A DNA stretch of 37,653 nt from Phoronis australis. Its lineage: Eukaryota; Animalia; Phoronida. The stretch is taken from NCBI GenBank assembly GCA_002633005.1, contig NMRA01000126.1, positions 869,388-907,040 on the forward strand, written 5' to 3'. Below are positions 1 through 30,335 of this stretch, piece after piece. Under the pieces are notes generated by a model that was not told the DNA's origin, made no database searches, and saw nothing but the letters and a program-made list of their open reading frames with translations. The position numbers were made by a program, and so were the translations under genes. Numbering within the stretch: the stretch's first letter is position 1; the number at the start of each line of letters is the position of its first letter.

Positions 1-645
1 CTGTATATTGCGCTTTACCACAGATAATTATTGTTTATTTCTGTATAATTTCTTAATATGTTGGTACAGCAATAGAACCCAAGTTTATTTTAGGAACAAT
101 ATAAACAATGGTTTGAACATAGCGCCGCTATTAAAACATGGGCGCATGAAAACGGAAGACTGTGATCGGTTTATAGTGTAATCCATCATCCATCATCATT
201 CTGAAATTGTTGTCACTTTCGCAGTAAAAAAATTTTCCAAGCTAGAGCCTTCCTATCTAGCCAGCTAGCTGCGAAGACTATTTTCAAAATACAGCAAGGT
301 GCCACTGCGTATTGAGCTCAAACAGACCTCGAAATTTCACACAGCCCGGATAGTTACATGTACGCTTGTCTCCTCGTCGAAAAGCTTGTATCAACATGAG
401 CTCAAGACCGGCGAGTTTGCATGCAAACTCTGGAAGCCAATTGGCATTAAAGTTGCCCGTTACGGCCGTTTAAACGAAAAACATCCGACGTCATCTTCTT
501 GTGTAATTCTCTGTCTTTTGTAACGAAAAAACGTATGTCGTCGTTTTGAAAAGAGTTCATTCGTGACACGCGCCACTTTCAAAATGTTTTCGACATCTCC
601 CATTATATGGTGACAACATCTCAGCAAAATTTGGTTCACTGATAT

Positions 646-830
646 NNNNNNNNNNNNNNNNNNNNNNNNNNNNNNNNNNNNNNNNNNNNNNNNNNNNNNN
701 NNNNNNNNNNNNNNNNNNNNNNNNNNNNNNNNNNNNNNNNNNNNNNNNNNNNNNNNNNNNNNNNNNNNNNNNNNNNNNNNNNNNNNNNNNNNNNNNNNNN
801 NNNNNNNNNNNNNNNNNNNNNNNNNNNNNN
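646..830. other. Assembly gap (185 N)
   Basis: Run of N directly visible. Confidence 0.99.
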
Positions 831-971
831 GCGTGAAATTAGTAGGCGGCCATATATTGTTTTGCATCCGGCGGAAACCGCCGATGAAAATGTCATGGAA
901 GCGATGTAATATTGTTTGCAATTTCAGCAAAAAGAAATTTCTTCTGCATTCTGACTCCGAGACCAACTTAC

Positions 972-1129
972 CGCTAAATCTGATTCCTGCTTTACACACA
1001 ACGGCTTTTTGAAAATCTTCGTCAGGTAGCAATGCCACGTGTCCGCCCTGATGACGTATTTTTGACCTTGTTTGTTCTTAAAGCCCGACCAGTCGCAGTT
1101 ATCAGATTTCTTGATGCATATCTTGTAGC
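972..1129 (-). CDS. Tae4-like domain 3, exon b: YKICIKKSDNCDWSGFKNKQGQKYVIRADTWHCYLTKIFKKPLCVKQESDLA
   Basis: Acceptor cttcgaacag|GC, donor GCG|gtaagt; 158 nt; inside ORF 924..1175. Confidence 0.9.
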
Positions 1130-4100
1130 CTGTTCGAAGACACAGGGCAGGAAGAACGACATAAACCAGTTTCAAATGGTGGGCAAATTTGTAAATTGAC
1201 TTGATAGTTCTTGTTTTATGAAAACCATATTTGAAATTTAAATAGCAGTTTACGCGTCTTGATACCCGAAAACTTCAGGAGAACTGTCTAGATGGCCAAT
1301 TGGTGTTAATTTCTTGCCAATGAAAATACAAGGAGAAGCGTCATATTGAGATACGTCCTGAGTTAACTTCGAAAGATCGTACTTACCTAATTGATATAAT
1401 GTGTAACTAAATCTCAGGCCGCATGTATCACCATAACTTTTATCAAATCCCGCCTTTTTCCACATTGCAGGCTTGTCAAATATGTTTGGGTCCGGGTACT
1501 TTGTCCACAAATCATTGAACGTAAAATCTGCAGTCATAGAAATTATAAATACAGCGTTTACGTGGCGTCCGATCGAAAGGCTGGTCCGTCGTCTTATCTG
1601 ATCTTTTACAAATGTTCATCTGACAACCATTAAAGCGACAATAACCACCCTAGTAGCCGTAAAGATATCTTGACGTTGTGTTAGATATCCACCCGCTGTA
1701 AATTAGGTTTCAAACAGAGAAAGAACTGACAGTTCCTTAAAATGATACAAAACACTGTTTTGATGATTTCAGCCAATGCTGTGTCACCTGCCAATGCATC
1801 ATTGACGTCAATTTCGAAAGACAATAGATGAAGGAATCAAATAAAAATTCATATCTCACAACTTGGATGTTAGGGTCTTTGGTGGGTGGTCTTTTCCCAC
1901 TGTTGCCGCATGATTCGCTAAAACTTATTTCACGTTTGCCTACTGATCAGCTTTTTAAATTTCCCTCCGAACATTTGAGGAAGATCGAGGTCTGCGGACC
2001 ATTATCTTGTTTCAAAGAACTGGATGGGAAAGTCATTTTAGTAGTTGTTAAAGAGCCAGAACCGGGTCTAGTATCTTTTCGATGGTTGAGATCTTGCGCC
2101 GTGATCGATCTACGCTATCTAGCTTAATTTCACGTATAAATAACGAACTGCTAGTTTTTCACAAGCCCAGATATTCAGTCTCCCGACCAATGAACAGGCT
2201 AAGCCCAGATTTGTAGCAGTTTTGTCATCGATTCGGGAATAAAAAGACACATTCTCAGAAAAACAACGGCATCAATATCATGGCCAAGTTTTGTTTGATA
2301 CAAGTGTTCAAGATGAAAACTCCAAAATGTTGTCACAGTTTTCTTAATTTTGTTTTTTAAGGATAACCATAAAATCCTTGATATGTGCTGCAGCAATACA
2401 CTAGAAGGGGAGCGAGATGAGCTCCCGAAGCTAGTTTACAACGAAACAACTTCATGAATATGAATATACATGTATGGTTGTTTATTATGACAATGAGTAA
2501 ACATACAATAAAGACTATTATCTACTGTGTAAAGGTAGGTTACAATGTGCCACAGATGCAGGCCGATGCTGCATCCATTCACCCCCTATATTTTCTAATA
2601 TCAGGTACAACATTTGATCATTTAAAAAGCAAATACCAAAATTACTTTTGAGAACAGTGCAAATGTCTCAAAGTTTCACATAAATTGGATTAGCAATTTC
2701 TGAGACTGTTTCAAATTTCGCCAAGAAATGTGAAAATTTCCTGGAGTCCTATGTAACCTTAATTTAAGTAGCGCTGAAGCAGATGTTGTGAAGATGCGTG
2801 GCGAATTCATTTTAAGAGCTCTTGATGAACCGTATTGTGGTCTAAAAGACAAAAGCAAAGTTTTCCAACATTTGTTGAAATATTCCCATCACACTCTGAC
2901 CATCACACTCTGACCATCACACTCTGCTCAGGCAATCAGATCTTACCTGCAATCTTCGTCGTTTCTTTACATGACGGAGATGGTGTAGTAGAACTAACAG
3001 TATGTGAGGTGGTGGTGGATTCAGTAAATCCAGTGCTTCCTGAAAGTGTGCTCTCTGTTGGTGGCGATCGTTTTGTTGCCGAGGTCGGGGGAGTGGCGGT
3101 AATCGAAAGTGTGGTGGTATTCAGGGGAGTGGTGGTAGTCGACTGTTTGGTGGTATTCGGGGGAGTGGTAGTAGTCGAGGATGTGGTTGTGGTCGTAGGT
3201 GTGGTGGTGGTCAGGGGAGTGGTGGTAGTAGGGGTTTTGATGGTAGTCAGGGTTGTACTGGTAGTTGGGGAGGAGGTCGTTATTTCAAACACGCAATACT
3301 TTTTGCAGTGTTCAAAATAACATTTATTTTTACAGTCTTCACCATCCCACAGGTCAATATATCCTTTGGATCTCTTGGAACCCTTTTTCCTGGTGCAACG
3401 GTGAAATATTATGATGCCTTTCCTTGTCTGAAAAATCATTCCTTAGCGATAGGTGATTAATATTCTAACATATTGGAATAATTTACCTGTCAGCCAACTA
3501 TACAAAAAACCAGAAATAGAAATAAAACCACAAAACGTTTTTGTGAGATTATTGCTATTTTGTTGTTTTATTTCTATTAGGGGCAAAAACCGACATTGTT
3601 TTGACATCAAGAGTAATGACTCATCAGATAACAACAACAACGACAACAAGAGCAACAGCAACACTCTATGATAATAATAACTAACCGACAGAAGAGGACA
3701 GCCATTGGTACGATGTTCATTAAATGTTCACTGCACACATGTTATGTGCCTATTTTCTACCATGTGGCTAAAGGGCATATTTTGCAAACCTATAATTTGT
3801 GAAGATGATTTTAATGCTATTTAAGTATTTTTGTCAGCGTTTGGACTGCGAGAGGCCATATGAGGAAATTGATGGCGGACGAGGGAGCCAAAAGTTCACG
3901 AAGTTGAATTTGTTTGTTGAATTCGATCTTTTTTTGGCTCGATCTGCTTATAATATGGGGTGAGTATCAGTGCCGTCATTACCACGGGCCCATTAGGGCA
4001 CTTGCCCGCGGCCACGACTGCAGAGGCCCCACGCCCGCGATCCAAGTCATATAGTAACGGTAAAAAAGTCAAGTGGTAGATGGTTCAGTGCCAGTATTTA

Positions 4101-7100
4101 AGTAAATAATGCTCCCAGTAAAATGTGTCTTACGTGCGTGAATGGGGCATTCACTGAGGCATTTCGCTGAATAACGGGGGCCAGTATGCAAGCTCCTGTA
4201 GGAATTTTCAAAAGGGGTGCATTCTCAGCCAATACATCGGATTTTACTAATGGGTACACAAGTAACCTAAAACAAGATGCGTTTCTGCAAAGATGGCGCC
4301 TCGCACTCACAAGATTCCACGCAACTTTGTTGTCTGATATTAAAAAACTTAGGGTGTTATTTTTGTCAATTAAAATGGTTTTGAATGCTGATATATCCAC
4401 ATCAATCATACGGAGAATTTGAGTGCTCTGGGACATTGATAATTTTATTTAGCTAAATATGAATGTGAAATCCTGTTCTGACAAATGCATTGCCATAGCC
4501 TTGTTTACAGTGGCGGTGTGGANCAGTCTAGTAGCTTTTGGGTGAAGGGTAATGCAAAGGCGCTTTTTGAGGGGGAATACTTCTTGGGGCGCCATGTAGC
4601 ACTTTTGGGGCTGGCCAAAAACAACACCGTATGATGCAGTTTTTAAGGGGAAGGGGTGCTTTCTTCCACTTGTCCACCTAGCTAATGGATACGACACCGC
4701 CAGTGGTTGTTTTTCCTATGTGAGACACTCCTGACTAAACGTTTTACAATATCAGAAATTTTGTTAAGCGTCGGCTAGCGGACTGGGTCTGAATTATTTT
4801 CAGAATGTCAGATTGATTTTACTTTAGTCCCGGCCAGACATTTACCCGATTTATTTCTGGAAACGGTGTTGACAGAATTCGCGCGCTTTGCTCTTCATGT
4901 TTGTCGAGAACTTGACAATTCAACGCAAAGAATTACTCCATTCGAAAGTTTTTGTTGGCTTATCCAATATTTACGATTAATTCACGTGAAAAACGGGCAT
5001 GCTGTTCATAACTCTTTAATTTGACAGCGGCAATGCGCAACGTTTGGGTTTTCGGGGGAGTAATTGCGGCATTTTCGACAGCCAGTGTGGTGTCTATCTT
5101 CCGTCAATTAGAAACGACATGCACATTCGACTCATTGTAGTGAGCATTGAATCATCTCACCTGCCGCGAAAAGGCCTAAAACAATGGATTACTTTACGAA
5201 CCGAGACATGTTTCAGGTGCAGACGTTGCGCCCATATCCTGATTCGACAGATGATCCATTTTATTAACCGGCTCCTTTGTGATGATAGCGCGGTTGAATC
5301 AATGAACAATAGACTGTGTTTTTACCGACATCATCGGCATTTGAGTTTCTACAATTAGATTCCAAAATTGAGAATAGGTGGTACTCAACTAGAAGACTAT
5401 TTAATATGTAACATCTCTGGCTTACTTCCTTTTTATGTTACTATTACAATTCTGTAATTTTTTACATTTTGGTAACACTCTTGGGTTTTCAGAATTAAAA
5501 TATCTTTTTAAACCTGCCACGTATGCGAAATGATAATCATTTATGTATTACATTATTCATCTTGTGCTTCTGGGATTATCATATACCATCAATAACTGAT
5601 AAAATGCTTTCTAATGATCTGACTCTCATGCAATTTGGCTGAAAAGCGGCGGAGTTGCAAAAACTTCCTAGTGACACTAACAGTGCTGTAGTGGGGGGGG
5701 GGGGGGGNGGCGCAGCCAACCATCTTTTGGCATTTGAACGTAAGTTACGTTCAGTGCTCAAGGTGATACGATGGGCTTTGGGCGCCTACTTACCTCTTCG
5801 TACTGGACACTAAATTTCATAGCAAGAACCAACGCCGGAACAAACAAATGCAAAGGAATTCCACGCATGCGCGGAGCAACCTCAACATCGCGAGATCGAA
5901 GTTGGCATTCCCAGACTAGAGTTCTATGCACGAAACCGTAGTCGCCATCGGATGTAGTGCTGTTTCTGCAAGAATTACAGTTGCGCAGACTTGTATTGTT
6001 GGCTGTACCAAGTTCAGAACGTTGAACTTTGACAGACATTGAGAGAAAATTGACCATAAAAAAGCTGTACACTCGCAAGATCAGCTCGACTGTCGATTAA
6101 AATATTGACTCAACCAAAACACTTGAGACTGTCTTCTTCATTGGAATGCTGCTGAAAAGTTTAAACTCTTTGCTGGATTTTTGGACTTAGTCGACGTTGA
6201 CATCTCTTGTATGAAAGTCGCAAACTTTTTTGTCTGCACAGACTTCTTTTTCCCTAGGGTTTTTCAATGCTGTGCGAACATACATTGTCAATGCGTGCCG
6301 TATACAGACTTTGACATGCAATATAAGCAATATGAGCATGTCTCTGGACCATCACCTTAACTCTAGTGTCCATTTCTTTTGAAAATGGGCACATTCTAAA
6401 CACATCGCTGGTGTGTTGATACTCAGGGGCTGAGAAATGGGCCAAGATTTTGAAATAAGTAGCAAAACCCCAATCACCTGTAGGCAAGCCAATCATCAAA
6501 ATTTGTACAAATTGATTTTTTTGCATATTTGTGGTTTTATTTGAATTTAGAGTACATAACTCCAATTTAAAGTTATTGCATAAGTAAAAGGGTTATTTTA
6601 TGTTAATGACATTTATTTCGACTTAACTGTACTCTCCCATTATATGGGTGTATAATCCACTGCATGGCCCTGTAGTCACCGCCAATAGTGTCAGGAACAA
6701 GGCGTGCTGGAATTGTTTTGGAAAATTTGGACTTCCAGTTATGAAATCCTCTATAAACGCCTCTTACAAAGGCGAATTTTGTCTAGCATATTTTCAAAAT
6801 GTTCCGACACTGCAGGTGAAATGTCCAGGACCTAGAGAACAGCAAAATCTCATCAAGTACAATAAAACCCGTATTAAGTTTCATTATTTTTTGCTAAGAA
6901 TTATCTACGTCCCCGTTTTGCCCGTTCTGACTCTTCCCATCTGTATTTTGGGAGACAATAACCATCCCTTATTAAAGTTACAATCTAAAAAGTTATACAG
7001 CTATAGTGAGCAGGTGACCCTAGTCGACATGTGTTATCCACTTGCTTTTTTGATTTTTTTATATCAGATGGAAGTTCTATGCAAACACAGTTCAAATTGT

Positions 7101-10100
7101 CAAATGAGAAAGAAACGAGAAAGCCACAATTTAGTTATATTTTTAGAAGCACAAAGAGTTCTTACATTCGAACTGGTCACATAAGCTATACGTCAAAAAT
7201 CGCACGTGAACCACATCGACCTGTGCCGACTCAGTGTCGACAATAACCATTGAGACTGTGAAGTCACCGACAAAAAGTTATTTCAAAATTTCAAACAAGC
7301 GGAAATCTGCAGCTGTCAAAATATCACTTTTTCTGTATTTCTTGCCGTTCCACACGTCGACATGTCCTGTGACCGGAATGCTCGGGGTCCTGTTTAGGTA
7401 TTGGCGGAACATTAAAGTCATATGATCCGTTTGTAGACGTTTTAAAAACATCGTGAATCTGCATAAAAACCATTGAAACATACTGTCTGATACTTAATTA
7501 GAACTTTTCGTAAGTATGGGGTCAATCTGTTGCCTGTACATATTTTTTCTTTTATTTTTTATTTTCTTAAAATCTGCGTGATCAAAACAAACGAATGTTG
7601 CCCATAATGCTGTGCGGTTTGACCTTTCGGCAACTAGTCAGCTGTTTCCGGTACTGCTTCGAAGAAGACAAGTTCGCCTTAACAGGTAATTTATTCGTTT
7701 CTTGAACATTTTGATGACGATATTGCTCCCTGTATAAGCTGAACAGTCTAACTATTACTCTTAGGATTAGATGAAACCATTACCTGTGGGAAAATNTGTT
7801 GCACATGTTGTATTTGTATAAACGTCAATTACTCCTGACAAAATAGCACCTGTAGAAGACAAAAGACGTCAGTTATGTATTAAAGTGTCATAGAACGTGA
7901 AAACAGACTAAATTGCGTTATTTAAAATGTTTTTCGGCAACCGAAACTGAAATCAAACTGTTCACCAGGTATTTTTACGGTTTGTTTTTAAATATTTTGA
8001 ATTTACGTTGATGTCAAAGTGTTTTTCCTTTAGTTTAAAATTTCAAAAAAACAATCTGCAAACTGCTGACACTTGATCAATTTTTCCCACACGGTATGAT
8101 GGCAAGACGCAAATGTAGCACATTTACCTTATATGGAAAAGGTGAAATTGACCTTTGACCTAAACAAAACAATGACAATTTCAAACCGCAGCCGGCGACT
8201 TCTTTGAACGCACGCGCGAAGATATGTTATTAGGGGCGGAGAATTTGAAAATTGTATTGGGAAAAATGAGCTTTTATTTCATATGTGTTTCAATAGTGAA
8301 TCTGACGATTTTTTCTACAAATTCATGCAATATGAACGTGAAGAACGCTCACGTTACGATCCGCAAAAATTAGATTCTCCGCGATCTGTTTAAAATGTAC
8401 ACTTTACGAGTTGTGCTTTGCATACCGCTTTAACAATTACCTCCAACTTTGCTCTGTTTCTCACACAAAGTGGTTTCTTGAAGATCTTCTTCAGATAACA
8501 ATGCCAAGTGTCCGCTCTGATGATGTATTTCTGACCGTGTTTATTCTTTAAGCCCGACCAGTTACAATTATCAGCTTTCGTTATGCCAATCGTGTAGCCT
8601 GCAGTAAGATAAGAGACGACAGGGACGATTTCATTAGGAGCGCAGTGACCAACCTCAGTTCTCTGAACTGTTCACAACATTAAGTGTGATTCCCATCAGT
8701 GAGTGTTCACCAATCCTTATTTGTTTTTAAAATTAATGAACTAAAACTCAATTCCAGAAACAAAACCATTTGATTTTTAAAACTTCTAAATGCCAATGAA
8801 TGCCACAAAACGGCAACACTTTGCATGTTTCTAAATACCAGGCAAAACATGGTTTTCTACACCTCTTCAAAGGTAGTTTAGGTCAGTCTAAACTGCACTG
8901 AATCAAGATAAATGTAAGAATAAAGATCTCTTGCTAACCAGAAAACTAGCTGTATGGATACTAACGTCAAAATAAGGCAAGGAACCTTAGCCAATACTCA
9001 GCTCAAACAGAAAAAACTGAAAAATGGTTCCATGCACTGACAGTAAGATCAAATACATTGAAATTCAAACATGAAGCAGGACAAGTGTATATTTTTTTAG
9101 AGATGCATGCTCAAATAAAAATGACAATTTTACAAAAAGGGCGGTCCTTCTTAAAAGCAAGGATTCGGAAATTACGGTTGAGCTGTTATGGAATCTTAAG
9201 GTCTTCACGAAGCTTGACAATTACTTTAACCTGCTCATCTTTAGACGTGCGCGATAATTTTACTTGCCTCGTCAATGAATTCCCCTAAGTACGTTTAACA
9301 TTTAACGGGTGCGTGTAGCGCCTTATAAAATTCCAAATGGTAGTCAGTGCATTACGGGCACTTACCTATACGATAGATGGCGTAACTAAACCTCAGTCCA
9401 CATGTGTCCCAGTGTGACAGGTACTTCTGATCAAACCCTGCTTTTTTCCACATAGCGGGCTTCTTAATCTTTGGATTCGGATACTTCTTCCAGATGTTAT
9501 TAAACTTGGGTTCTGTAAATATGATAGAACAACAAGAATGGGCATCATCAAAACTTTGAAGGCATTGTTCTGGTACGTGATGAACATTCAGACGTGTAAT
9601 CTTTCTGCCATTGTGCAGTTGACCTTTATTTAAAGATACTCACTGAAGGCCTTTTGTTTGGAGATCTCAAACAAGCAGAACTCTTTACACTTTTTGAAGT
9701 AACACTTGTTTCTACATTTCTTGCCGTCCCACAAGTCGATATGTCCAGTTGGTCTCTTAGGGTTATTCTTCCAGGAGCAGTGACGGAATGTGATGATTCC
9801 TTTCTTTCCCTGAAAATCATTCTCAACTAAGTCGTTTGAAAACCTGTAGCAGTCAACAGAGTGAGATATAATTTAGACACAATTTCTTTAAAATTTCTAT
9901 ACAGTTTATTGTAGAGTGATATAACAAAATATCTGATTTTGTTGTCGCATTAGACGGCTCGTCACCACCGGTTAGATGGTTAAAAACAGAAATCGAATTA
10001 GGAAGGCAAATTTCATGAAATTGGCCACTAAGTATTTCTTACAGTGATAGAGTTTGATTTCCGTCCAACAAGAACATTGAAACTATCGGCTACTCAAGAA

Positions 10101-13100
10101 AATGTTTCTGAATTTATTGGGTTGGCCATCTCCAAAATTGCGAAAAAGAAAATGGCTCATGTACACATTCATTTGCCTGTGGCTTAAGTGGGAAATAGAA
10201 CTCAGCACGGTAACGAATATTTTGTGACATTTTTAATGGGAACAGAAAGGCTAAATCTATTTTCGTTCTTTTTAGCCCACTAAACAGGGCGAAATACAAC
10301 TTTAAGTCATCATTAGTCGTCCTCAGGCGTTCGGTAGATCTGTAATCCTATTTTAGGTTTAGCTTTTAATTTGTGTCGTTGTCAAGTCAAGTGGTAGAAA
10401 TAAACTTCTAACCTAAACCGCACTCTCGCCATGGACTTGAATTCCAACTACACCGAGGCATTCTCATCGCGGGCAATTTGAGTGACCGAATTGCGCGTGC
10501 CAGTTTCTATTAAACATTGCCATGCCCGAACCAGAGCAGGCCAACACACATCACAGAATGGCGCTTCGATAGTGCCTGGCCCTAGTAGTACAAGAACGAG
10601 TAAAATTCATGTCTATTACCAACTGATGCATTTCTCTGACTTAAGCAATGGCAGAATAAAAGTCATCGATGCCGAAATATTCATAAGTGTCCTAAACTAC
10701 AGAGCGGTGGCCTCTGGCCACTGGCTACATTGTAAGACGCTCTCCTATTTGTTCGTGGTAAGGATACCATGTTTGTAGTTGCAGTTTAGCTTCCGTTATG
10801 AAGGTCCTTTGTGCGTGGAAAAAGTTTTTGAGGTCCGTAACAAGTGTTTTGTGAATGGTGGTAAGGGTTCTGCTCCGTGTTTTTTCACCGTGTTTGTGTA
10901 TCGCTGACGCAGACATTTTTTACAACAACTAAGTGAGGTAACCGACGAATATGTCCTGAAATATCATTGTTCCCAGAGAAAATAACTTTGGAAAAATCCA
11001 TTCTGCTTTATTTGTAGCTGCGTTTACGTCTTAATAACTTACCGCTAACTTTGCTTTGTTCTTTACACAGAACGGTTTTTTAAAGATTTTCATCAGGTAA
11101 CAATGCCAAGTGTCAGCCCTGATGATGTATTTCTGGCCGCGTTTGTTCTTAAAGCCCGACCAGTTACAATTATCAGCTTTCGTGATGTATATCTTGTAGC
11201 CTGTAAAATATCGTTTAATGTAATAAAATTCCCATGCGAAGCCACCCTTACAGACATGTTTAATTATTATTAAAAATATTAGGAAATTAAGTAAATCGCA
11301 GGGAAGGGGGAAGGAGGGAGGGAGTCGGAGATTCTTGAAGGTAAAAGCCAATTCCGTCGTGCAACACAATAGGAATACAACATAAAAAGTAAAGAATAAA
11401 AATGAGACAGTAATCATAAATAGTAAAGAATAGAAAATGAGAAGTAATTACTATTTATTATTCATAAATTTGACATACGTTTAGAAGACTGACACAGTGG
11501 TATGAATATTTCAATAAATAAACAAGTAAATAAACCCGACACCTGCATGTACATATCTACACAGATTACAGCATTACTTTTGCACACCTGAGTGAGTGTG
11601 CGTGCGTCTACGTGTGCAAAAATGAGTATAGTTCCTGTGTAATGGTGGAATTTGCATATGGTTATTCATGGTGCAGGAGAAGTAGCTTGAGTCATTGCAT
11701 AGTGAATAAGTATCTGTTTATCTTATCTAGAAGTGACCTTACGCCAGAAAATGAATGGCAGGTGTGATTGACCAATCAGCATGGTGCATTCCGGACACTC
11801 ATCCAGACTGCAGTTCAAGTCGCCATTTGTCTGACATTAGCGGCTGTAGGACAAAACACGTTCAACTACAATGTGCATTTTAACTGAATGGCCAAGAGGT
11901 GTTGTTGTGGTGTGTGTAATTCAGACAGTCGTTATACCAACAGAGATGAAAGTCCTGTCAATTTTTATCCTTTTCCAAAGCCTAAAAGTGACGTTGTAAT
12001 GAGCAAACGGTGGATTAATTAAACTGTGTGCACTCCCGGCGCACGAGCAGCCTTGCCTGTCAACATTGTTTGACCACTCGAAAGCTAAACACAAGTATGT
12101 TCTAAGGTATGCACTCTTTTTAACATTTCTTCCCAATATCGGAATTTTGGCTTTGGATTACAGTCTTGTTTAGTGTTTGACCCGCCTCTGCGGCACTTGG
12201 TGGTTCATTATAGCCATACATGACAACCATTTCCATAGCACTGACGAAAACGAGTTAAAATATAGCCAATCAAGAGTCAAGATGCATTGCATGTCTACCT
12301 ACTTATCTATTAGAGGCTCTTACATCTATACTGACTGTGAGTGTTGTTATAGGCCTATTCGTACATGTAACTCCTCAGTCTTGGCCCTGTCCAGCCAAAG
12401 CTCGATCTCCACAAAGATTGCCAGTAAAAGCCAAAGCGAAGGATTGAAAACTTTGTTATGAGCATGGGCGAAAATGCACATTAATTACCGAAAATACGTA
12501 GGATTTTGGCGCTACGCTGCGGCACTACAGAAGCGGCAAGCACGCACTGAGCAAATACGCAGTGCCTGTATTGGTTCTCCGCCTGTACTTAGTATATAAC
12601 TCAAATTATATAAAATAACAGATTGGCAACATTTGGCAGTCGGAAAGTGTGCTTTGTTTAGTCTGTCTTCGGAGGTCATAATCATGGTCTCAAATAATGA
12701 CCGGGTTAGGCTGGTGTTGCTTCATCAAAATCATTACCTTTGAAATGATAATTTGAATGGTTACAGTTGCTCCGAATTTCGACTTGTTACGTGCGTCTGT
12801 CACGGCGTCGGCTCGACCATCGGCGATCACTAGACAAGAAATTCTCGGTTAAACTGTTACAGATACAGCTCAGTAGGTTTCTTGATCCCCTCAATATTTC
12901 AGTAAAACGTTAACGTTTTGTTGTGAGGGAAGAATAGTTATTCATTAAGATTTTTACTATTATTTTTAACCGCATTCGTGCAGTTTTTGTCGACGCTGAT
13001 GTCAACTCTATGAGGCTCATTGGATTTGCGTTGACTTATAAAACATCCGGCGGTTACATGTCAGGTGTCCTCGACGTAAATCTTCACCCCGTTCCCGTAG

Positions 13101-16100
13101 GAATCTTTTCGGGAGGCTCTTGCCTTTTGTCTTTGTCATGGCAAGATTCATAGGGAAGATAATGTTCGCCAAAGTCTGCGTGAACATCAGTTAGCCACAC
13201 CGGTCTTGGTTGACGAAGCCATTCTCTGATGTCGGACTTCCGATCGAATCACGTGACATCATAGGCGGAGCGATCTTCTGCTGGCGTAAGGTCAAATTGA
13301 AGACGGTATTTTATTTTCATTAATAATTTTAGAAACATGAAAACGTAAATGGTGAGTTGCCATGAAACTGGTTAATTTGTAGAATAGAGTCTGGAGACTG
13401 GGAGCATTGCTGTAAGCCTGTATGTTTGGTCGTGTCGATAAAGCGTGTTCTGAGCATGGCATGCAACTTGACCAAGCTATACGTCCATGACTACGCAATG
13501 TACTGAGCGCAAAATCTATATGCAGTACCTATTTCAAAGTGAATTTGAACGGTAGACATCTGCTCATCTTGTCAATGACACTATTGTTTTTCAAATGGCT
13601 GAAGACTGGGGATTATTCAATTGTTCAGCACGCCCAACCAGTGCCTTGAGCAAGGAGAACGTACATGGAGTCAAGTTCAAATTGTCATTGGACTTTTACT
13701 TAAAAGTTACTTAAAACGCTGCCAGAGCTTAATTTCAGCAATTCGTCGCCATCTTGTCACTACAGCAACCGGGATAGTAGAAACTTACAACATTTTTAGT
13801 GACAGAAGACTGGAAGTCTGCTTCTCCCTTTCTCCGTCGTTTTACACACAATGATATGAGCAAAAAAGCAAGAGGTAGGGACCTTTAACCAAAACGTGGC
13901 TTGAATAACGTCCGATTCGGCTATGTTTCGGCACTGATCATTGCGAACGTTTTCAACGACTTTCGAACAAAAACAAAACAAGCGAGAATTTCTGCCGATG
14001 CGTTGCCATTTTGTCTCTGGCAAAAGTTCTCTTTCCAATCACAAAAGGGCGCTGCAAAGGTATATAACGGAAGTTAACCGCCATTGACTTTGTAAGGCTA
14101 CTCTAGCGCAATGTAACATTTAGATGCGGGCAGATTGATGCTAGATTGGTTTGTCATCTCAAGCTTCGACATGCTGTCAGGATTTACTCGTTAGCTTTGT
14201 TTACAAATTCAGGATTATCATGCTAATAATTGTACGATGACACTTGAATAACCCCTTTTCCAAATGCTGCCTAGTAGTTTATGAACCATGGTGATTGCCT
14301 ATTAAGACCAAGGCTCATAAACCAGAATTAGAAATGAAAAGAGTCAAGTGACATCGAACAATTCTTGGCGTGATAATCCTGAACTCGTAAATAAACTTTA
14401 GAGAGTAGACGATGGCAGCATATCAAAGCTTAAAAGAGTTACCAATCAGACATCAATGTCATGCCTCCGTCAACATTGCTCTCCTTCCCTCTATGTACCT
14501 AATAATACCCTCGGAATTGGTACATATTTGTGTATTGTTGACTTGGTTCATTGAATAATCGCGAGATCAGATCGTGATTATATGGCCTAATCATACATGA
14601 TCCAATCCACCACTCGACCATGAGTTTCTACTCACCCAGTTGGTAAAGGGTGTAGCTAAATCTCATCCCACATGTGTCTCCGTAATTCTTATCAAACCCT
14701 GCCTTTTTCCACATAGCACGCTTCGGAAACGTCTTCCGGTCTGGATACTTGGCCCACAGGTCGGCTTTGAACTTGAAATCTGCAAAAATGTCTGTACAAC
14801 TTGAAATTGCACCTGCATTTTATATATAATCTATTCTTACATTGCAGACTAGGTTATTTTTGCCGGTGTCTGCTTTTCGAAACATGTGGTTTGATTGTGG
14901 CTGTTATTTGCATTTATGCCCTGAAAATGTACAGGTTTCCGAGAAAATGTTTTTAGGATATCGTGGTAAAATTACCCCTCTGCATTGCAGCTGACACGTC
15001 AGCGTTTAAAATGGCCTCAGAGGCCCAGCAAATGTTTTCAAAATTGAAAAATAACTCTTACGTGTCTTGTAATTTGCAAAACTGTTGCACAGCATGTGAA
15101 ATTTAGTCAGAAAAGTTAATGTAACAATAACAAGGGCCTGTTACGAAGTCCCGCTTACACGTTTTGCGACTTTCAATACAAGGGGCAAAACTATTCATAG
15201 TCTAGATATCGGCAGTAACACTTTCATGAAACGAATCCTGCGTGACACCCTCACCAGTCGATTTTGGGCAACTTGACCGGTTTGATAACCATAAAATCCG
15301 CTAGGTCTAAAGAGAACATCCACCTTCAGTTGACATTATCGTTCTCTCGAGATTAACTTGGGTAATCATGTGCGAACTTGGCCATTGCAAACATAGACAT
15401 AAACATTCGGGAAGACAAATATTTCTTGCTTATGTCATTTTAATAAGAATAAGTCATTTTAAATCATAAGCTGTTCAATACTATTTTTAAATTTTCATTG
15501 GACAGTTTTTAATAGCATATTTGAATAGTTTGTGAAAATGCATGTGGTTAAGTGTTTGAAATTTCAAAAACGGACACGAAATGTGGCTTTTGTAACCTAA
15601 ATCTAGAAAATAATGTAAAGCCAGTATCCGCTTCTTCATTAATTCTGTTGGGCGCGCAACATTATAAACCAGCAGTTAGAAATTGAGGAAAGCCAAGTGT
15701 CATTGTACAATTTTGGGCATGGTGTTCCTCCGTGGTGACTAGATGATAGCGTTGTTTTTACAGGATTAAAGCGCACGGATACTACAGATACTTCTGACAA
15801 CGGTCTGAGAACAGTTTAAACATGTTCGCTATTGCTTATGCACCTAGTTGCTGTTATACCGCCTAGTCCCTGTCCTGAGAGTACTCAATCACATTTCTGA
15901 AAGCTTGTGCCAATATGAAATAAGGATATCCGCCAAATCAAAATATTGGCGAGTTGAAATCTTACTCTGAAGAGTACAGTCAGCACTGTTTAAAAGGAAC
16001 CATTAGTGGAAAGCTTTTTGTTCATACCTGATATCTTTTTTGTTTCATTGCAAGGCGGCCAGTGCGTAGCTAGCGTGCTGATTGAAGACGTTGTTGGCTT

Positions 16101-16331
16101 GGTATCCACTGGCGGACTGGTGTCCGCTGGCGGAGTGGTGTCCGCTGACGGAGTGGTGTCCGCTGGCGGATTGGTGTCCGCTGGCGGAGTGGTGTCCGCT
16201 GGCGGAGTGGTGTCCGCTGATAGAGTAGTATGGTTAGGCAGAGTAATATCCGTTGACTTAACCGTGTTTGCTGGCAGAGCGTGGTCCACGGGTGAATTGA
16301 TGGAATTCGCTTGGACTTTTAACACCGAAAA
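972..16331 (-). CDS. dae4: Multi-exon gene (partial at the 3' end, start uncertain): probably secreted protein with three tandem Tae4-like peptidoglycan amidase domains and mucin-like linkers (domesticated amidase effector, dae4-like)
   Basis: Exons 16028-16331, 14636-14779, 11043-11200, 9644-9809, 9366-9512, 8441-8598, 2947-3427, 1387-1527 and 972-1129 all have AG/GT ends and join in frame without stops (1857 nt). Each domain shows the Tae4 motif order F..(L/I)W.KYP / DTCG(L/M)RFSY / KY(I/V)IRAD..YL.KIFKKP / KGII.F / G(H/Y)IDLWDG..C...C, comparable to bacterial Tae4 NAC.IRMSY / Y.YRV..YL...GKP / GKKGII / GH..LWNG..C...C as recalled. The symbol is a family-level assignment. Confidence 0.85.
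1387..1527 (-). CDS. Tae4-like domain 3, exon a: DFTFNDLWTKYPDPNIFDKPAMWKKAGFDKSYGDTCGLRFSYTLYQLG
   Basis: Acceptor gactgcag|AT, donor TTAG|gtaagt; phase 1-1; inside ORF 1250..1537; Cys codon at 1421-1423. Confidence 0.9.
2886..2926. repeat. Short intronic tandem repeat, 14-bp unit ccatcacactctga, about 3 copies
   Basis: Directly visible. Confidence 0.85.
2947..3427 (-). CDS. Tae4-like domain 2, exon c (His replaced by Tyr) fused to Thr/Ser/Pro-rich mucin-like stalk 2
   Basis: Acceptor aatgatttttcag|ACA, donor GCAG|gtaaga; phase 0-1; TRKGIIIFHRC...KGYIDLWDGEDCKNKCYFEHCKKYCVFEI then a TTTTP-rich run to PSCKETTKIA; inside ORF 2936..3439. Confidence 0.9.
7268..7430 (-). pseudogene. Decayed extra copy of Tae4-like exon c (pseudo-exon)
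   Basis: Reads TDHMTLMFRQYLNRTPSIPVTGHVDVWNGKK...FRLFEILK*, collinear with 9644-9809. The acceptor position reads AA instead of AG, there are compensating indels, TAA replaces CAA, and a GT remains at the homologous donor position (7267-7266). Confidence 0.75.
8441..8598 (-). CDS. Tae4-like domain 2, exon b: YTIGITKADNCNWSGLKNKHGQKYIIRADTWHCYLKKIFKKPLCVRNRAKLE
   Basis: Hand translation; acceptor cttactgcag|GC, donor GAG|gtaatt; 158 nt, phase 1-0. Confidence 0.9.
9366..9512 (-). CDS. Tae4-like domain 2, exon a: KPKFNNIWKKYPNPKIKKPAMWKKAGFDQKYLSHWDTCGLRFSYAIYRIG
   Basis: Hand translation; acceptor atttacag|AA, donor ATAG|gtaagt; phase 1-1; Cys codon at 9400-9402. Confidence 0.9.
9644..9809 (-). 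CDS. Tae4-like domain 1, exon c (catalytic His): GKKGIITFRHCSWKNNPKRPTGHIDLWDGKKCRNKCYFKKCKEFCLFEISKQKAF
   Basis: Hand translation; acceptor aatgattttcag|GGA, donor TTCA|gtgagt; phase 0-1; His codon at 9741-9743. Confidence 0.9.
11043..11200 (-). CDS. Tae4-like domain 1, exon b: YKIYITKADNCNWSGFKNKRGQKYIIRADTWHCYLMKIFKKPFCVKNKAKLA
   Basis: Acceptor ttttacag|GC, donor GCG|gtaagt; 158 nt, same length as paralogous exons 8441-8598 and 972-1129; inside ORF 11031..11417. Confidence 0.9.
11888..12106 (+). mobile_element. Degenerate THAP zinc-finger exon of a DNA transposon, in an intron of the amidase gene
   Basis: MAKRCCCGVCNSDSRY...VNFYPFPKPK...KRWI, then frameshifted LC...VCSK followed by a GT donor; fits the THAP C..C / FP / W / CSxH pattern. 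Confidence 0.65.
14134..14457. repeat. Imperfect fold-back inverted repeat of about 320 bp (MITE-like)
   Basis: Left arm attgatgctagattgg...ttcaggattatcatgctaataattgtacgatgacacttga pairs with tcaagtgacatcgaacaattcttggcgtgataatcctgaa...ccaatcagacatcaat; the inner tttatgaaccatggt / accaaggctcataaa also pair. Confidence 0.75.
14636..14779 (-). CDS. Tae4-like domain 1, exon a (catalytic Cys): DFKFKADLWAKYPDRKTFPKRAMWKKAGFDKNYGDTCGMRFSYTLYQLG
   Basis: Hand translation; acceptor tttttgcag|AT, donor CTGG|gtgagt; phase 1-1; clear paralogue of 1387-1527 and 9366-9512. Cys codon at 14670-14672. Confidence 0.9.
16028..16331 (-). CDS. Exon: possible signal-peptide end plus Pro/Thr-rich stalk 1 (FSVLKVQANSINSP...(ADTTPP)n...PPCNETKKIS)
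   Basis: Acceptor ttctttctgtttcag|TTT (phase 0), donor TCAG|gtatga (phase 1), inside ORF 15990..16379. An in-frame ATG at 16367 is an alternative start. Confidence 0.8.
16101..16220 (-). repeat. Coding 18-bp minisatellite, about 6-7 copies, encoding (ADTTPP)n
   Basis: Plus-strand unit gctggcggagtggtgtcc repeated with single-base variants. Confidence 0.92.
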
Positions 16332-17014
16332 CTGAAACAGAAAGAACCAGCGGTTGTTGCGGTACATATTGTTGCACAATCATGCGACAATACGTGCCGA
16401 GTGCGACAGTTCATGTCGCAACAACAAGATGCAGTCTCCCAACTTCTTGTGTTTTACTTGCAAGTATTTGATAGAAACCGCACATAGATTTTTAAGAGAG
16501 TCTCTTTTTCAATAAGAGTGTCGTTTTTTGAAAACGTGTTTTAATCTATGACGTAACACCCAAGATCGTCCGGCAGCGTTTTTTGTTCTTTTTTGTAATC
16601 AAATTGAAGATTGTAGGTGCCGAAAAAACCCATGAAACGTCCCGTTTTCCCCCTGTAGTCGAACGGGTAGATAGGGCTATGTTGCGTGGAAATTACAGTC
16701 GCAAATGATAATATGCCAGTTTCGTCGTGTGTCAAAAAGCGGAAATTTTGATGGAGTGGCAAAACGACTGCCAAAATTTCAAAAACTAGGACAGTCCGCC
16801 AAGAGCGGGATAATTGCCAATTACAGTGTACGCTGTCAGAAGCACAAAAATTGGATTCTTTTACAAGGTAAACATTTTATTTTTTAATTTTACTTCCCGG
16901 GTATAGGTATATACTACTTGCAACATCACTGCTTAGAAATCGAATTAACAAAAAAGTAACTGGGCAACAGGTTAAGTTTGCACAAATGATTTCATTAGAA
17001 ACAGTAATGATCTG

Positions 17015-17712: not shown

Positions 17713-20700
17713 TTTGAATGTTTATTATGAAATAGTCAATACAATAAATATACAGACCAATACAAAGAAATCTATATAAAATTATACACGCATACATTAA
17801 TTTATCAAGTAATTATAAGAGTACAATGATAAGTATTAAATATAAATATGATTACGAATATCAATAAATCATTTTCATACACAATAAGTGATTTTGCAAT
17901 CAATGTGATGAAGAGTCGAAAATAAGCACCTGTATACGATGTTATCAACTCACACAAAGGGATTCAATATTAAAAAGAACTTTTGAAACTATTAAGAATA
18001 AAACCTTATTTTCATTAAACTCAAGTCCTATACAATCATTAAGAAAAAAATAATTTTGCTAAACATTTTTAGAAGATCTTAATATCTTTGTTAACATTGG
18101 GGTATTGTTTGAGTGTCTGGAAAAGCTGTGCCCTCTGCTCCCCGCATACCTTGCAAGCAAAGAAAATATGAGCACAGGAACACAAAGGTAAAGTATTATT
18201 AAAATTATGGTTAAATTTGTCACTGTTTAGGAATAATCCGCATTTTGATCTGTATAGGATAATTTCATGGTTGAGAGGAAGTTGGAATGATGTGAATGGG
18301 ACTGCAGAGTCTAGAGTAGTGATATGCAGTTTAAAGTTATTTTTGGGAGTGACGATTGAAGTACTTTCTTTTATTTTCGTTGGTAAGCTTGGCTGAGGGA
18401 AGATGGTATAGTGTATAAATTACTTTGCCTCAGTCCTGGTCTTGCGTTATGTCATCTGCAGGAGTCAAAGAGGATTTTTTAATAATTGTCTATGTTGTTT
18501 AAGACTTAGAATTTATACATGAAAATGTGGAGTTTACGACGGGTTGTTAGTTTGATCCAGTTGATTGTGTTTTATCCTTTGTATGTCCCTGTTATGGCTA
18601 AGGCTGCTTGGTATTGTTTCTTTCTAATTGAAGAAATATGCCTGCGTTTGCTGATTGCTAGATGATGTCACGGATATGGAAGCACAAAAGACTTGAACAA
18701 GAGGCACGGAGTTGAGATGACAAGAGACGATTGGAATTGGATTAATTAATTTATTGTACTTTTTGAACGAGTTCGCGATACTGAAGAATAAATGTAAGCT
18801 TATCGTCTAGTAGCAAGCCACGGTGTTCATGTGTGTGCCTTTTGGGAATAACTTCCCCATCGGCTGATAGATCAAGCATTGAATTTGTTTCGAAATTAGT
18901 GCTACACGGTATTAGACTAAGAAAATATAGGATCATCACTTTTTTCAGGTTTAAATTCCATCTTCGATTTGTGAGTGCAGTCAGAGAGTTTGTTCAGGTC
19001 AGTTTGTAATTGTAAGGAGTCATGAGGATGCAGTGTCATCAGCATGTAAGAATGTTTACCAGTTTTTGTGTCTGGAAGAGCGTTCGTGTACAGTAAAAAG
19101 AGTAAGAAGCCTAGTACGGTACCCTGTGGTTCTCAGCATTTACATAACCTGGTGTTGATGGGGGTGAGAAGACACCCTCAGTTCGGACTTTGGAAGTTCG
19201 CTATTCAAGATATGATTTTAAAAATTGGAGGAGAGGGATAGAGAAACCATAAGATTGTAAGTTTTGTAGAAGCAGATCATGAGGAACGATTATATCAAAT
19301 GCTGACGCAAAGTCTAAAAATCCGGATCTCACGTAGTACTCTTGCTCAAATTGGAGGTGGATTTCATGTACAATTTCCGTAAGTTGGGACACAAAGCATG
19401 AATCCAAATTGCCGACCATAGATGAGGTTTTGTGACGAGAGATGGTCAAACATGTTTTGAGAAATATTTTTTTCTACAAATTTGAATAAGGTGTTGGAAA
19501 GGGTTATGGGGCGATAGTTGGCATTGTCTGCTTTGGAGTCCTTTTTGTGTATTGGTATCATAGCATCAAATTTCCAGTCCAAAGGAAATTTTCCAGATTG
19601 TAGTGTGTTGTTGTATAATGTTGTCAAAGGAGCTGTAAGCTCTCTTGCTATTATCTTTTTATTAGTAATTATATCGGTACCGTCGGTTTTGTTTTCGGCA
19701 ATGTTTTTAGTAGCTTTCGGACTTAAGATGATTGGGCTTGTATGCCAGAGAAGTGCTCTAATGTTCTGTTTGGGAACTTGGGAAAGTTTGTTGGTGGTGC
19801 AATGTGACTCTTAGCGGTGAAATATTATAGAAATAGTTTACCTTTTTCAGCTGTGGATGACGCCTGAGTGTTGGCTTCCTTTAAGTGGATGGTGGGGTTT
19901 AACGATTGGTTTATCTGTCCTTGAATTTTTTTACTATATCCCAATATTCCTTAGAATTTTGGGGACGTTGTTGATTATGGAAATAATTTTCATGTTAAAG
20001 TTTTGTTTTGTCTTTCTAATTAGTTTTACCACTATTTTGCACTGTTCTTTTTAACACTTAAACGTGTACGGGTTATTAGATTTTCTGAACAATCTCTACA
20101 GTTTATTTCTATTATTCATTTCAGAATTTGTTTTGTTATTAAACCACGGTTTGCTCTTGTTTTGTATCGTTTCCATGGTTGATGGGAATTTTTGTTATCA
20201 AGTATATTGTAGAATGACTGTGTGAATGTTGAGACTGCGTCATTTACGTCACTTTTATTTAGTATTTCAATCCAGTCAAATGGGGTTATGTCGGTGCGCA
20301 ATTTGTCCATGTTAAGGAGACTGTAATTCCAAACCTTTTTAATAATGCCGGGTTCTTCAGGTGCGCAGTTGAGTGTGAATGTTGTTTCTATAACGCAATG
20401 GTCTGAGTTACCAATAGGAGATCTAACAGAAGTGGATTCAATGAATCCGTAGACAAACAAGTTTAGTCCTCGCCCGGTGTTAGAGTCATAGGCAATGTTG
20501 TATCCTGGAATAACAAGTGCACCGATGTTGTCTTCAGACAGCGTTCTGTATTCACATATGGCTATGTTCATGTAATATTTGTCTCTAATAAATTGCTTGA
20601 GAAGTTCAAATCTTGAAAAATTGTTCGCCTTGATACTGTTGATGTTAGTGAATATGACTTTAAAGCTGGCTAAACCCTGAGTCTCGGGTCCTGAATTGTC

Positions 20701-21050
20701 TTCTATGTCGCCAGCAGTCAGAAGGCACATCTCAATGATAATTCTGATATTACAAAGTTCTTCGTTGTGAAGTAAACATTACGTAAGTGCACAGCTCGGG
20801 GTCGTTTTTGTAGTAAAAAAGTGAGGTCATGCTTTGTAGGCAAAAACCAGTGAAATGTTTTTGTTCTGCAGACACCCAGATAATTACAATTATTATCTGT
20901 GTGCTAAAAACTTGATGAATTCATACATTAACATCCTTATCTAACAAGAAAAAATAAATACGAGAATAATAAAAAGTATTGTTACACCTGACGCCACCCG
21001 AATCAAATAAAGCTCTAAGACAGTTCCGTACTCGTTTGGCCATTTTATCT
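17710..21050 (-). mobile_element. Decayed CR1/L2-group LINE (APE endonuclease plus reverse transcriptase ORF2)
   Basis: ORF 20116..20730 has GDIEDNSGP, TNINS and SDH (APE). ORFs 19364..19627 and 19201..19449 have FPLDWK..IPIHKK..NYRPITL, QFGF and FLDF.SAFD..PH..LL. PQGTVLG lies near 19125, HADDT near 19040, and AATAAA with a short A tail near 17710-17726. Ends are approximate. Confidence 0.9.
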
Positions 21051-27122: not shown

Positions 27123-27238
27123 GTCTCAGATTCATGACATGGGCAAAACCTCTTGGAAATTTCGTCAAAATCCACCGGCAAGCCTCGGGATTTTGGCGAA
27201 ATTTCCAAGAGGCTTTGCCCATGTCATAAACCTGAGAC
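27123..27238. repeat. Palindrome, 51-bp arms with 4 mismatches, 14-nt loop
   Basis: gtctcagattcatgacatgggcaaaacctcttggaaatttcgtcaaaatcc versus ggattttggcgaaatttccaagaggctttgcccatgtcataaacctgagac. Confidence 0.9.
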
Positions 27239-29740: not shown

Positions 29741-30335
29741 ACAATTCATTCAGGAACCCAGGGCAAAGATACTGCCCAGGGTTAGTATAGACAGAGATCG
29801 TGTAACTTCGTACTATAGTTTACATAACAGCCACGGGCTTCGCATACCAAAGTCAGCCATTACACGAATGCTCAAAACAAAAGCAGCACAGCAGCTCAGC
29901 ATGGTAGTGAGCTATTCTAAGTCATATCCCTGGGTTGTATAAGGTCTGTGTTTTATATTAAATATGTGACCTGACGTTATTTTGTTGTTTGTTTATCATT
30001 CTAACTTGGGTTACAAATGCATCTGCTGCAGCATTGGTCACGTACTGTTATGATTCGTTTACTTTCTTGAGGCTGAACTGTCTCCACACACGTTCTTAAC
30101 AAGATGACACAGAGTTCACAGAAATATCCCAGAGCCAAATAACCATTTCCTAATATTGCAACATTGTGATGAATTTTGTATGATTTCCTTAAGTTGACCT
30201 TAGTGAATCACTAAAACAATCTTAACAATTGTTATTATAGATTGTTTTCGTGAGGCACTTAGTTCAGTTGCACTCCATTACTGTCCTGGTGATACCCACA
30301 TCAAACAGTCCATTTAAGAAATGGTATCAACAACC

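Follow-up and report, generated by a model that had tools for sequence, protein, structure and literature searches.

Bacterial Tae4 amidases, known from the structures of the Salmonella (4j30, 4hff, 4jur), Enterobacter (4hfk), Serratia (Ssp1, 4bi3) and Agrobacterium (6ijf) proteins, have an NlpC/P60 papain-like fold and are single-domain, intron-less and delivered by T6SS, with an accompanying Tai4 immunity gene. In the available excerpts of the literature, the Cys-His dyad of Tae4 is essential, two types of triad occur, the CxxxC motif is conserved, and the toxicity of StTae4 is abolished by a His-to-Ala change; a triad type with Asp at His+2 is described there for Serratia Ssp1 and Agrobacterium Tae4 (PMC6277958). 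An animal tae4 homolog, nvDae4 of Nematostella vectensis, is secreted, cleaves peptidoglycan from Gram-negative as well as Gram-positive bacteria, kills B. subtilis and is inactive as the C63A variant, and a second Nematostella paralog lacks the catalytic Cys (bioRxiv 10.1101/2021.05.13.443009; PMC8713801, in excerpt); the excerpted text describes neither tandem domains nor stalks for nvDae4. Tick Dae2 is a domesticated T6SS amidase and animal antibacterial factor of the Tae2 and not the Tae4 family, and the excerpted report assigns it a signal sequence, a single amidase domain and a specificity widened to Gram-positive walls (bioRxiv 10.1101/2020.04.10.036376). Domesticated T6SS amidases are thus an established example of bacterial weapons recruited by animals for immunity, and, as far as these excerpts go, the characterised ones are simple secreted enzymes.

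The locus analysed here is, like nvDae4, an animal tae4 homolog and a candidate for an antibacterial role such as that of Dae2. The window, i.e., the whole stretch of DNA analysed, comprises 37,653 nt of Phoronis australis (GCA_002633005.1, contig NMRA01000126.1, positions 869,388-907,040 of the forward strand).

Results

Exon structure of the locus

Nine minus-strand exons, each with an AG acceptor and a GT donor, splice in phase into the layout stalk-D1-D2-stalk-D3 (Table 1). Together they amount to 1857 nt, or 619 codons with no stop, and their phases agree in the repeating order 0-1, 1-1, 1-0; the joined peptide contains DTCGxRFSY and KYxIRAD three times each, and KGII and GxIDLWDG twice each. 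Because paralogous exons match in boundaries, in lengths (158 nt in all three B exons) and in DNA identity (69-85%), the pattern lies far beyond chance; the stop-free frame and the shared boundaries bear out the nine-exon, in-phase GT-AG tandem gene that had been proposed by a sequence-only reading. The 5' end of E1, the stalk of which has an S+T+P fraction of 0.51 and a pI of 4.4, is uncertain, lying at the acceptor at 16331 or at an in-frame ATG at 16367. In E7 the reading frame stays open over exon C and the stalk (77% S+T+P) up to an RNA-confirmed donor; this exon also carries a Cys linker, which is homologous to the last part of E1, and a possible internal acceptor at 2993. The third exon of D3 presumably sits in the assembly gap or past the left end of the window. 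A decayed copy of exon C (nhmmer E 1.9e-13; Pfam Tae4 E 0.037; 86 nt aligned to E4 with 77% DNA identity) indicates that the locus turns over, and may be a remnant either of an earlier third exon of D2 or of a lost domain. Remnants of eukaryotic transposons occur in the flanks of the locus.

Table 1. Features of the tandem Tae4 locus, numbered by position in the window.
Feature	Position	Strand	Description
E1	16331-16028	-	Acidic stalk of Pro/Thr/Ser/Asp repeats; Cys-containing linker at its end
E2	14779-14636	-	D1 exon A; catalytic Cys codon 14672-14670, motif DTCG
E3	11200-11043	-	D1 exon B; KYIIRAD
E4	9809-9644	-	D1 exon C; His 9743-9741, Asp at His+2 9737-9735, CxxxC
E5	9512-9366	-	D2 exon A; Cys 9402-9400; 131-nt intron after E4
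E6	8598-8441	-	D2 exon B
E7	3427-2947	-	D2 exon C (Tyr 3361-3359 replaces catalytic His), then Thr/Ser/Pro stalk and Cys linker
E8	1527-1387	-	D3 exon A; Cys 1423-1421
E9	1129-972	-	D3 exon B
Assembly gap (N run)	646-830	.	Just downstream of E9
Decayed exon C copy	7287-7430	-	Keeps GH; frameshifts; without in-phase acceptor

Tae4 identity and catalytic residues

Pfam Tae4 (PF14113) was matched in three of the 10 pieces searched, the relic included; E4 alone scored 30.7 bits (E 3.6e-7), above the cut-off of 27, and E7 scored 22.9 bits (E 9.9e-5). A bacterial Tae4 profile of 50 Tae4-family homologs gave 65 bits for D1, 56.5 for D2 and 14.6 for the partial D3, and in the alignment to it Cys and His fall into the columns of the catalytic residues. 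Every significant match in the PDB profile search was to Tae4/Ssp1, with E down to 1.4e-20 for a query profile that also contained two database homologs. The Tae4 identity first read from motifs is thus upheld by Pfam, by the bacterial profile and by the structure-profile search alike. The Cys motif, GH and CxxxC are features that the locus shares with bacterial Tae4, the Cys motif reading D-T-C here and N-T-C in most aligned bacterial homologs. The domains are strongly basic (net charges +28 and +26; pI 9.9). Evidence on the fold comes by proxy from a model of the lancelet protein XP_035684889.1 (pLDDT 83; Foldseek against Tae4 crystal structures, E 1.2e-10, rmsd about 3 Å), the window domains themselves existing only as joined exons.

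The catalytic Cys is present in all three domains. D1 has a complete Cys-His-Asp triad plus CxxxC, its Asp at His+2 being that of the Ssp1/AtTae4 type, and is predicted from these residues to cut peptidoglycan. At the variable position of GxIDLWDG, D1 has the catalytic His but D2 a Tyr, so D2 is predicted to be catalytically dead, i.e., a pseudo-enzyme; among 204 fetched homologs the motif takes the form GH in 171 and GY in none. For the RNA of the third exon of D3, seven differences from E4, none of them in the His codon, were found among the 40 of 498 differences listed, which suggests that D3 keeps its His and, as a prediction, probably cuts as well. The proposed three amidase domains therefore stand as three Tae4 copies that all carry the Cys, although D2 has lost its His and exon C of D3 lies outside the readable window.

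Transcript evidence

Stranded RNA reads were taken from three runs (X1, X2 and X3) of individuals other than that of the window, with a threshold of three reads for a junction. Three of the eight introns, spliced on the minus strand, were supported, namely E5-E6 (0, 5 and 1 reads in X1, X2 and X3), E7-E8 (23, 17 and 0) and E8-E9 (31, 31 and 1), whereas at this threshold no junction was listed for E1-E2, E2-E3, E3-E4, E4-E5 or E6-E7. Neither of the two domain-to-domain links is among the listed junctions. Reads that span the E7-E8 junction extend over no more than the terminal 48 nt of E7. The donor of E9 is joined by RNA (28, 27 and 3 reads) to the third exon of D3, which is about 91% identical to E4 (contig, 12 differences in 136 nt) and lies outside the readable window. 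At 9747, 44 of 47 X1 reads carry a set of mostly synonymous differences from E4, whereas E8 and E9 show one listed difference each in RNA; back-splicing of E9 to E4 (circular RNA) as the origin of this joint was rejected on these grounds. A single nine-exon mRNA is likely, and only likely because three of the eight introns are supported, depth is uneven and no domain-to-domain link was seen; of the single mRNA implied by the sequence-only reading, the reads support three introns, to which they add the third exon of D3. That the gene is a eukaryotic resident is borne out by the stranded junction reads and the transposon flanks, and, being spliced among such remnants, it is not a T6SS effector-immunity pair, so that the single-domain, intron-less, T6SS-delivered and Tai4-paired character of bacterial Tae4 does not apply to it.

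Secretion signals and spacers

No clear signal peptide was found in the window: the ATG at 16367 gives a weakly hydrophobic leader with a maximum hydropathy of 2.0, versus 3.5-3.9 in three comparison proteins, and a relaxed scan of the window for signal exons yielded 15 chance-level candidates, none of them supported by RNA. The stretch at 5868-5794 resembles a signal peptide and has a consensus donor, but it was discarded since its end falls within a repeat and no joint is listed from it. The window showed neither a membrane anchor nor an exon for a lectin domain, and the Ser/Thr/Pro tracts are read as spacers; the mucin-tethered protein envisaged earlier is thus not sustained.

Selection and phylogeny

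Between the domain copies, dN/dS (Nei-Gojobori) is 0.16, 0.11 and 0.12, a measure here of past selection since duplication, and the copies are under purifying selection; with dS of about 1.1-1.6 they are old duplicates and not alleles. The window domains, the lancelet proteins and one unnamed protein, P0173, form one clade (support 98/96), in trees that are affected by long branches and composition bias. The sister grouping of window and lancelet reached 83 SH-aLRT in a quick tree, but P0173 intervened at 90/56 in a careful one, so the wider grouping holds and the sister relation is weak. As the copy set of each species (window, lancelet) forms its own clade, the repeats arose or were homogenised separately.

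Discussion

The present data favor, at slightly better than an even chance, a model in which the product of this tandem Tae4 locus is an antibacterial peptidoglycan amidase that derives from bacteria and is secreted, with D1 and probably D3 cutting and D2 able only to bind. This model proposes that the Cys-His dyad would cut the peptide cross-link as in Tae4 and nvDae4, that the basic surface would draw the protein to anionic bacterial walls, and that D2 would add avidity. O-glycosylated stalks would keep the heads apart and retain the protein in mucus, a 5' exon not found in the window would provide for secretion, and all domains would be joined in a single chain, if only in a minor isoform. 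It is highly probable that the locus makes a peptidoglycan-hydrolysing protein of the Dae4 type, and moderately probable that a multi-domain chain is really made. The domesticated antibacterial role suggested earlier may be retained by analogy with Nematostella Dae4, but it would not extend to catalysis by D2, the His of which is gone.

A different arrangement, to which we attach a distinctly smaller though appreciable likelihood, is that tandem dae4 units are clustered here and make mainly shorter proteins, the abundant product being a linker-D3 single-domain amidase (from its own promoter, from the acceptor at 2993 or from a near-identical paralog), with D1 and D2 minor, separate or decaying. 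The in-phase joining of 619 codons would then merely reflect the fact that exons retain their phases on duplication. Reads over D3 are about ten times deeper than those over D1 and D2 (E8 at about 35-48x in X1 and X2, E1-E6 at 5x or less, E1 at about 2x or less), about 70 of the 456 nt in the main bin of E7 have read coverage, and X1 covers the D1 exons and hardly D2, with the reverse in X2, although dips in RNA depth are unreliable as findings. Such a cluster would also accommodate the end of the longest E7-side match at 48 nt, exactly at an AG, the relic exon, the stop that unspliced E4 would hit four codons past its donor, and five X2 reads, hinting at further paralogs, in which the linker is joined to an exon A that departs from E8 in its first part. 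However, E5 follows E4 with a good acceptor and without a leader of its own, the intron being so short that there is no room for a separate gene start. Further, no exons A and B belonging to E7 alone were found between 8440 and 3428, E5-E6 is spliced in RNA and under purifying selection, and lancelet gene models show tandem Tae4 chains.

It is also conceivable, if rather improbable, that the protein acts mainly as a multivalent receptor for peptidoglycan or as an agglutinin, or else serves in the digestion of ingested bacteria, and is not an inducible immune lysin. D2 is conserved despite the loss of its His, the lancelet relative adds a C-type-lectin-like domain, and one of the two Nematostella paralogs, as excerpted, is without the catalytic Cys; yet D1 has the full triad and CxxxC, and the abundant RNA is that of the D3 unit with an intact Cys. 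Very little weight can be given to an assembly artefact or bacterial contamination as the origin of the tandem arrangement: an N gap adjoins the locus and single Ns fall within it, but no N gap separates the exons, the dS values are those of old copies, and spliceosomal junctions in RNA and transposon remnants of eukaryotic type accompany the locus.

The favored model of a tandem, secreted Tae4 amidase has its nearest known counterpart in lancelets. The best match to the window domains, up to 38% over a domain, is a Branchiostoma floridae protein of 657 aa (XP_035684889.1; UniRef A0A9J7MZU6; 'uncharacterized protein LOC118421628') with a signal peptide, a C-type-lectin-like domain, a stalk and three Tae4 domains, and the Branchiostoma hybrid-assembly models XP_078604954.1 and XP_078586281.1 likewise combine a Thr/Pro-rich stalk with three Pfam Tae4 domains in tandem behind it. 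The novelty earlier entertained for a multi-Tae4 architecture is thus reduced by this unnamed RefSeq protein. The representative Tae4 search covered the best 150 of 1786 matches. Among 5913 candidate proteins of 320-2000 aa, three matched and only the lancelet protein was tandem, while a word-index search with the exon C pair gave no match among five candidates, both being weak negatives; P0180, P0182 and P0187, with two stretches each, are single domains split by inserts. No description of a tandem Tae4/Dae4 form or of a lancelet Dae4 was found in the literature searched, Chou 2015, which may list such genes, lying outside that search.

The lancelet protein and the window domains have extra cysteines and a W-x-G motif in common. 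In contrast to the lancelet protein, with its clear signal peptide and C-type-lectin-like N-terminal domain, the window yielded neither of these, and it has a second long stalk before D3. The three lancelet domains hardly differ from one another, have acidic pI values (4.6-5.2) and retain both Cys and His throughout, whereas those of the window are old duplicates, basic, and in one case without His. It is a tentative proposal, held at somewhat less than an even chance, that animals have at least twice made a multi-headed protein on mucin-like spacers from a captured bacterial type VI amidase, here combining strongly cationic active heads and a conserved, catalytically dead head that would bind peptidoglycan in one chain. 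To our knowledge, such an enzyme/pseudo-enzyme antibacterial design has not been described for Dae proteins. This locus and the lancelet protein suggest that, once captured, the gene was elaborated by the duplication of exon blocks, by stalks, by a lectin domain (in the lancelet), by the reversal of charge and by a catalytic residue being lost from one of the copies, and the protein may offer a novel enzyme for lysing Gram-positive walls. The locus thus extends the known story of domesticated T6SS amidases without adding a new class, and D1 against D2, together with the basic against the acidic domains, provides a comparison for asking how a toxin, once captured, becomes adapted to multivalent action outside the cell.

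Gene structure and Tae4 identity

On translation, the nine minus-strand exons with AG/GT ends (E1-E9), read from the sequence alone as joining in phase, do so over 1857 nt, or 619 codons, without a stop. The three tandem domains follow a three-exon plan of A (bearing the Cys motif), B and C (bearing the His motif), with D1 encoded by E2-E4, D2 by E5-E7 and D3 by E8-E9, exon C of D3 being missing. Ser/Thr/Pro stalks are formed by E1 and, in E7, by the two-thirds at the 3' end (S+T+P 0.51 and 0.77, respectively), and both end in Cys-containing linkers that are homologous to each other. Searched sensitively in six frames and as nucleotides, the window as a whole yielded three A exons, three B exons, two intact C exons and one relic.

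Tae4 matches were obtained for three of ten pieces put to Pfam: E4 scored 30.7 bits (E 3.6e-7), above the family cut-off, E7 scored 22.9 bits, under it, and the relic matched weakly. A profile from 50 Tae4-family homologs gave 65 bits for spliced D1, 56.5 for D2 and 14.6 for D3 (exon C missing), and aligned Cys and His to the catalytic columns. PDB matches were Tae4 or Ssp1 in six of seven cases with the exon C pair and in seven of seven with a fuller profile that included two database homologs; an ESM Atlas lead was consistent with Tae4 at a recognition value under the tool threshold. The Tae4-like nature of the domains is thus upheld by Pfam, homolog-profile and PDB matches alike.

The decayed mobile elements of the window are listed in the table. 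The ORF upstream of the retrotransposon fragment looks endonuclease-like by eye and has no Pfam match, and the CXC fragment is probably a terminal part of a large, decayed DNA transposon at about 33600-35800.

Features of the window other than the nine exons
Feature	Position	Strand	Basis or remark
Frameshifted relic C exon	7287-7430	minus	six-frame and nucleotide search
N gap	646-830		
Decayed non-LTR retrotransposon	18900-20800	minus	frameshifted reverse-transcriptase fragment, Pfam RVT_1 E 0.005
DDE_Tnp_4 transposase fragment	30860-31246	minus	E 1.4e-12
Tesmin/TSO1-like CXC fragment	35497-35772	plus	E 0.001
Palindromic/inverted-repeat, MITE-like element	5680-5800		many RNA reads, both strands
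Palindromic/inverted-repeat, MITE-like element	14134-14457		
Palindromic/inverted-repeat, MITE-like element	27123-27238		
Palindromic/inverted-repeat, MITE-like element	30195-30266		

Catalytic residues and selection

The Tae4 family is characterized by CxxxC and by a Cys-His-Asp site in which the His is essential and the Asp occupies one of two positions (PMC6277958, PMC3695027). D1 has the complete Cys-His-Asp set and CxxxC, with Asp at His+2 as in both Ssp1 and AtTae4. D2 retains Cys, Asp and CxxxC, and has Tyr at the catalytic His position, a motif form found in none of 204 fetched homologs (205 searched); because of this replacement, D2 is predicted from sequence to be inactive as an amidase. 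The proposal of three amidase domains therefore stands as regards Tae4 kinship and falls short at D2. Values of dS (1.1-1.6) show the copies to be old, and dN/dS (0.11-0.16) shows them, D2 included, to be under constraint; net charge is +28 for D1 and +26 for D2.

Expression and transcript structure

RNA from three raw runs (X1, X2 and X3) and one contig set, all under the same species label and from other individuals, was aligned to window positions 1-17000 at 90% likeness, about 18-19% of each raw run being read. Junction reads in X1/X2/X3, in an orientation that fits minus-strand RNA, numbered 31/31/1 for E8-E9, 23/17/0 for E7-E8 and 0/5/1 for E5-E6, so that the supposed joining of exons is seen at three of eight predicted introns, with no junction listed in the alignments for the other five. 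The E7-E8 reads match just the last 48 nt of E7, and the AG where this match ends could be an internal acceptor. In another joint (28/27/3 reads), E9 is connected to an exon sharing about 91% identity with E4; since 44 of 47 X1 reads at 9747 differ from E4, we read this exon as the putative missing exon C of D3. Four of the six affected codons are synonymous, and the His codon is unchanged among the 40 of 498 difference rows displayed. A variant E8-E9 joint (1125-1386), with four reads in each of X1 and X2, in which three letters differ where E9 begins, is an allele, a paralog or an alternative acceptor.

D3 reaches a depth of about 35-48x in both X1 and X2, compared with no more than 5x for E1-E6 (binned values, taken as upper bounds); the alignment tool cautions against taking depth dips as findings. 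Missing junctions, the short match to E7 and uneven depth weaken the model of a single abundant nine-exon mRNA and do not refute it, as the RNA is from other individuals and depth dips are unreliable. In X3, D3 stands at about 0.7x; the other two runs, from the same study, have 35-48x, a difference that suggests expression specific to a tissue or condition.

Proposed function and alternatives

As is established for the family, the Cys-His dyad cleaves peptidoglycan stems at a peptide bond. The Nematostella vectensis homolog nvDae4 is a secreted protein able to cleave walls of both types and to kill B. subtilis (PMC8713801; 10.1101/2021.05.13.443009), and tick Dae2 has widened specificity (10.1101/2020.04.10.036376). 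The reading to which we give somewhat better than even chances is a secreted, cationic, multivalent wall amidase, in which the dyad of D1, and probably of D3, would cut the stem peptide, D2 would only bind, and the stalks would be glycosylated spacers. The main rival, a cluster whose main product would be single-domain D3, is a tentative possibility; the depth of D3 favours it, and the E5-E6 junction reads speak against it. A receptor or digestive role seems improbable, and the tethering claimed earlier is not sustained, no anchor being seen in the window and the leader being uncertain. An artefact is very improbable.

Relation to other Tae4 proteins

A HMMER scan of 1.84 billion representatives (E up to 0.001) gave 1786 matches, and among the 150 listed one, a Branchiostoma protein, had three matching stretches. 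Its cluster includes B. floridae XP_035684889.1 (657 aa, "uncharacterized"). Features of that protein are a signal peptide, a domain resembling C-type lectins (Pfam match weak, E 0.023; Atlas 0.90), a stalk of Thr/Pro/Glu and three Tae4 domains by Pfam. Among the matches listed it fits the window's domains best, and it has extra cysteines in common with them. Two or more full Tae4 domains occur in three lancelet records only among the fetched proteins; a predicted model of a lancelet tandem protein (pLDDT 83) has Tae4 crystal structures as its 11 best matches. In trees of 69 and 30 rows, chosen for similarity or for putative eukaryotic origin, window copies cluster together, as do lancelet copies, which supports separate expansion or homogenization of the repeats in each lineage. 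Both groups and one unnamed protein (P0173) form a 98/96 clade, and a single transfer behind the two genes is plausible. The spliceosomal introns, the transposon remnants and the lancelet match point to an animal as the source of the window. P0173, with a weak bacterial-SH3 match beside its Tae4 domain, may be related to the donor lineage.

Elsewhere among the homologs, the unnamed P0110, P0112, P0140, P0143, P0151, P0152, P0154, P0156, P0157, P0159, P0185 and P0193 have a signal-peptide-like start, a Cys-rich N-terminal part and one Tae4 domain, lie on short contigs and fall in tree clades separate from the window's; two examined in full have Cys-rich repeats and a Pro/Ala linker before Tae4. 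These proteins seem to be of eukaryotic, perhaps protist, origin and hint at other dae4 captures that have gone unrecorded. Unnamed Kringle and Tae4 fusions (P0150, with Pfam Kringle E 8.5e-25, P0135, P0201 and P0202) pair a eukaryote-type domain with the amidase.

Animal dae4 genes are already published. No description of a tandem Dae4 was found in the literature searched, a point on which the supplements of Chou et al. (2015) may bear; the novelty suggested for the tandem stalked layout holds for that literature but not for databases, as a stalk with three Tae4 domains is already in RefSeq/UniRef, unnamed, for the lancelet. Relative to these systems, what appears new is the mix of predicted active and predicted dead heads of strongly basic character, together with a second stalk and an apparent parallel expansion.
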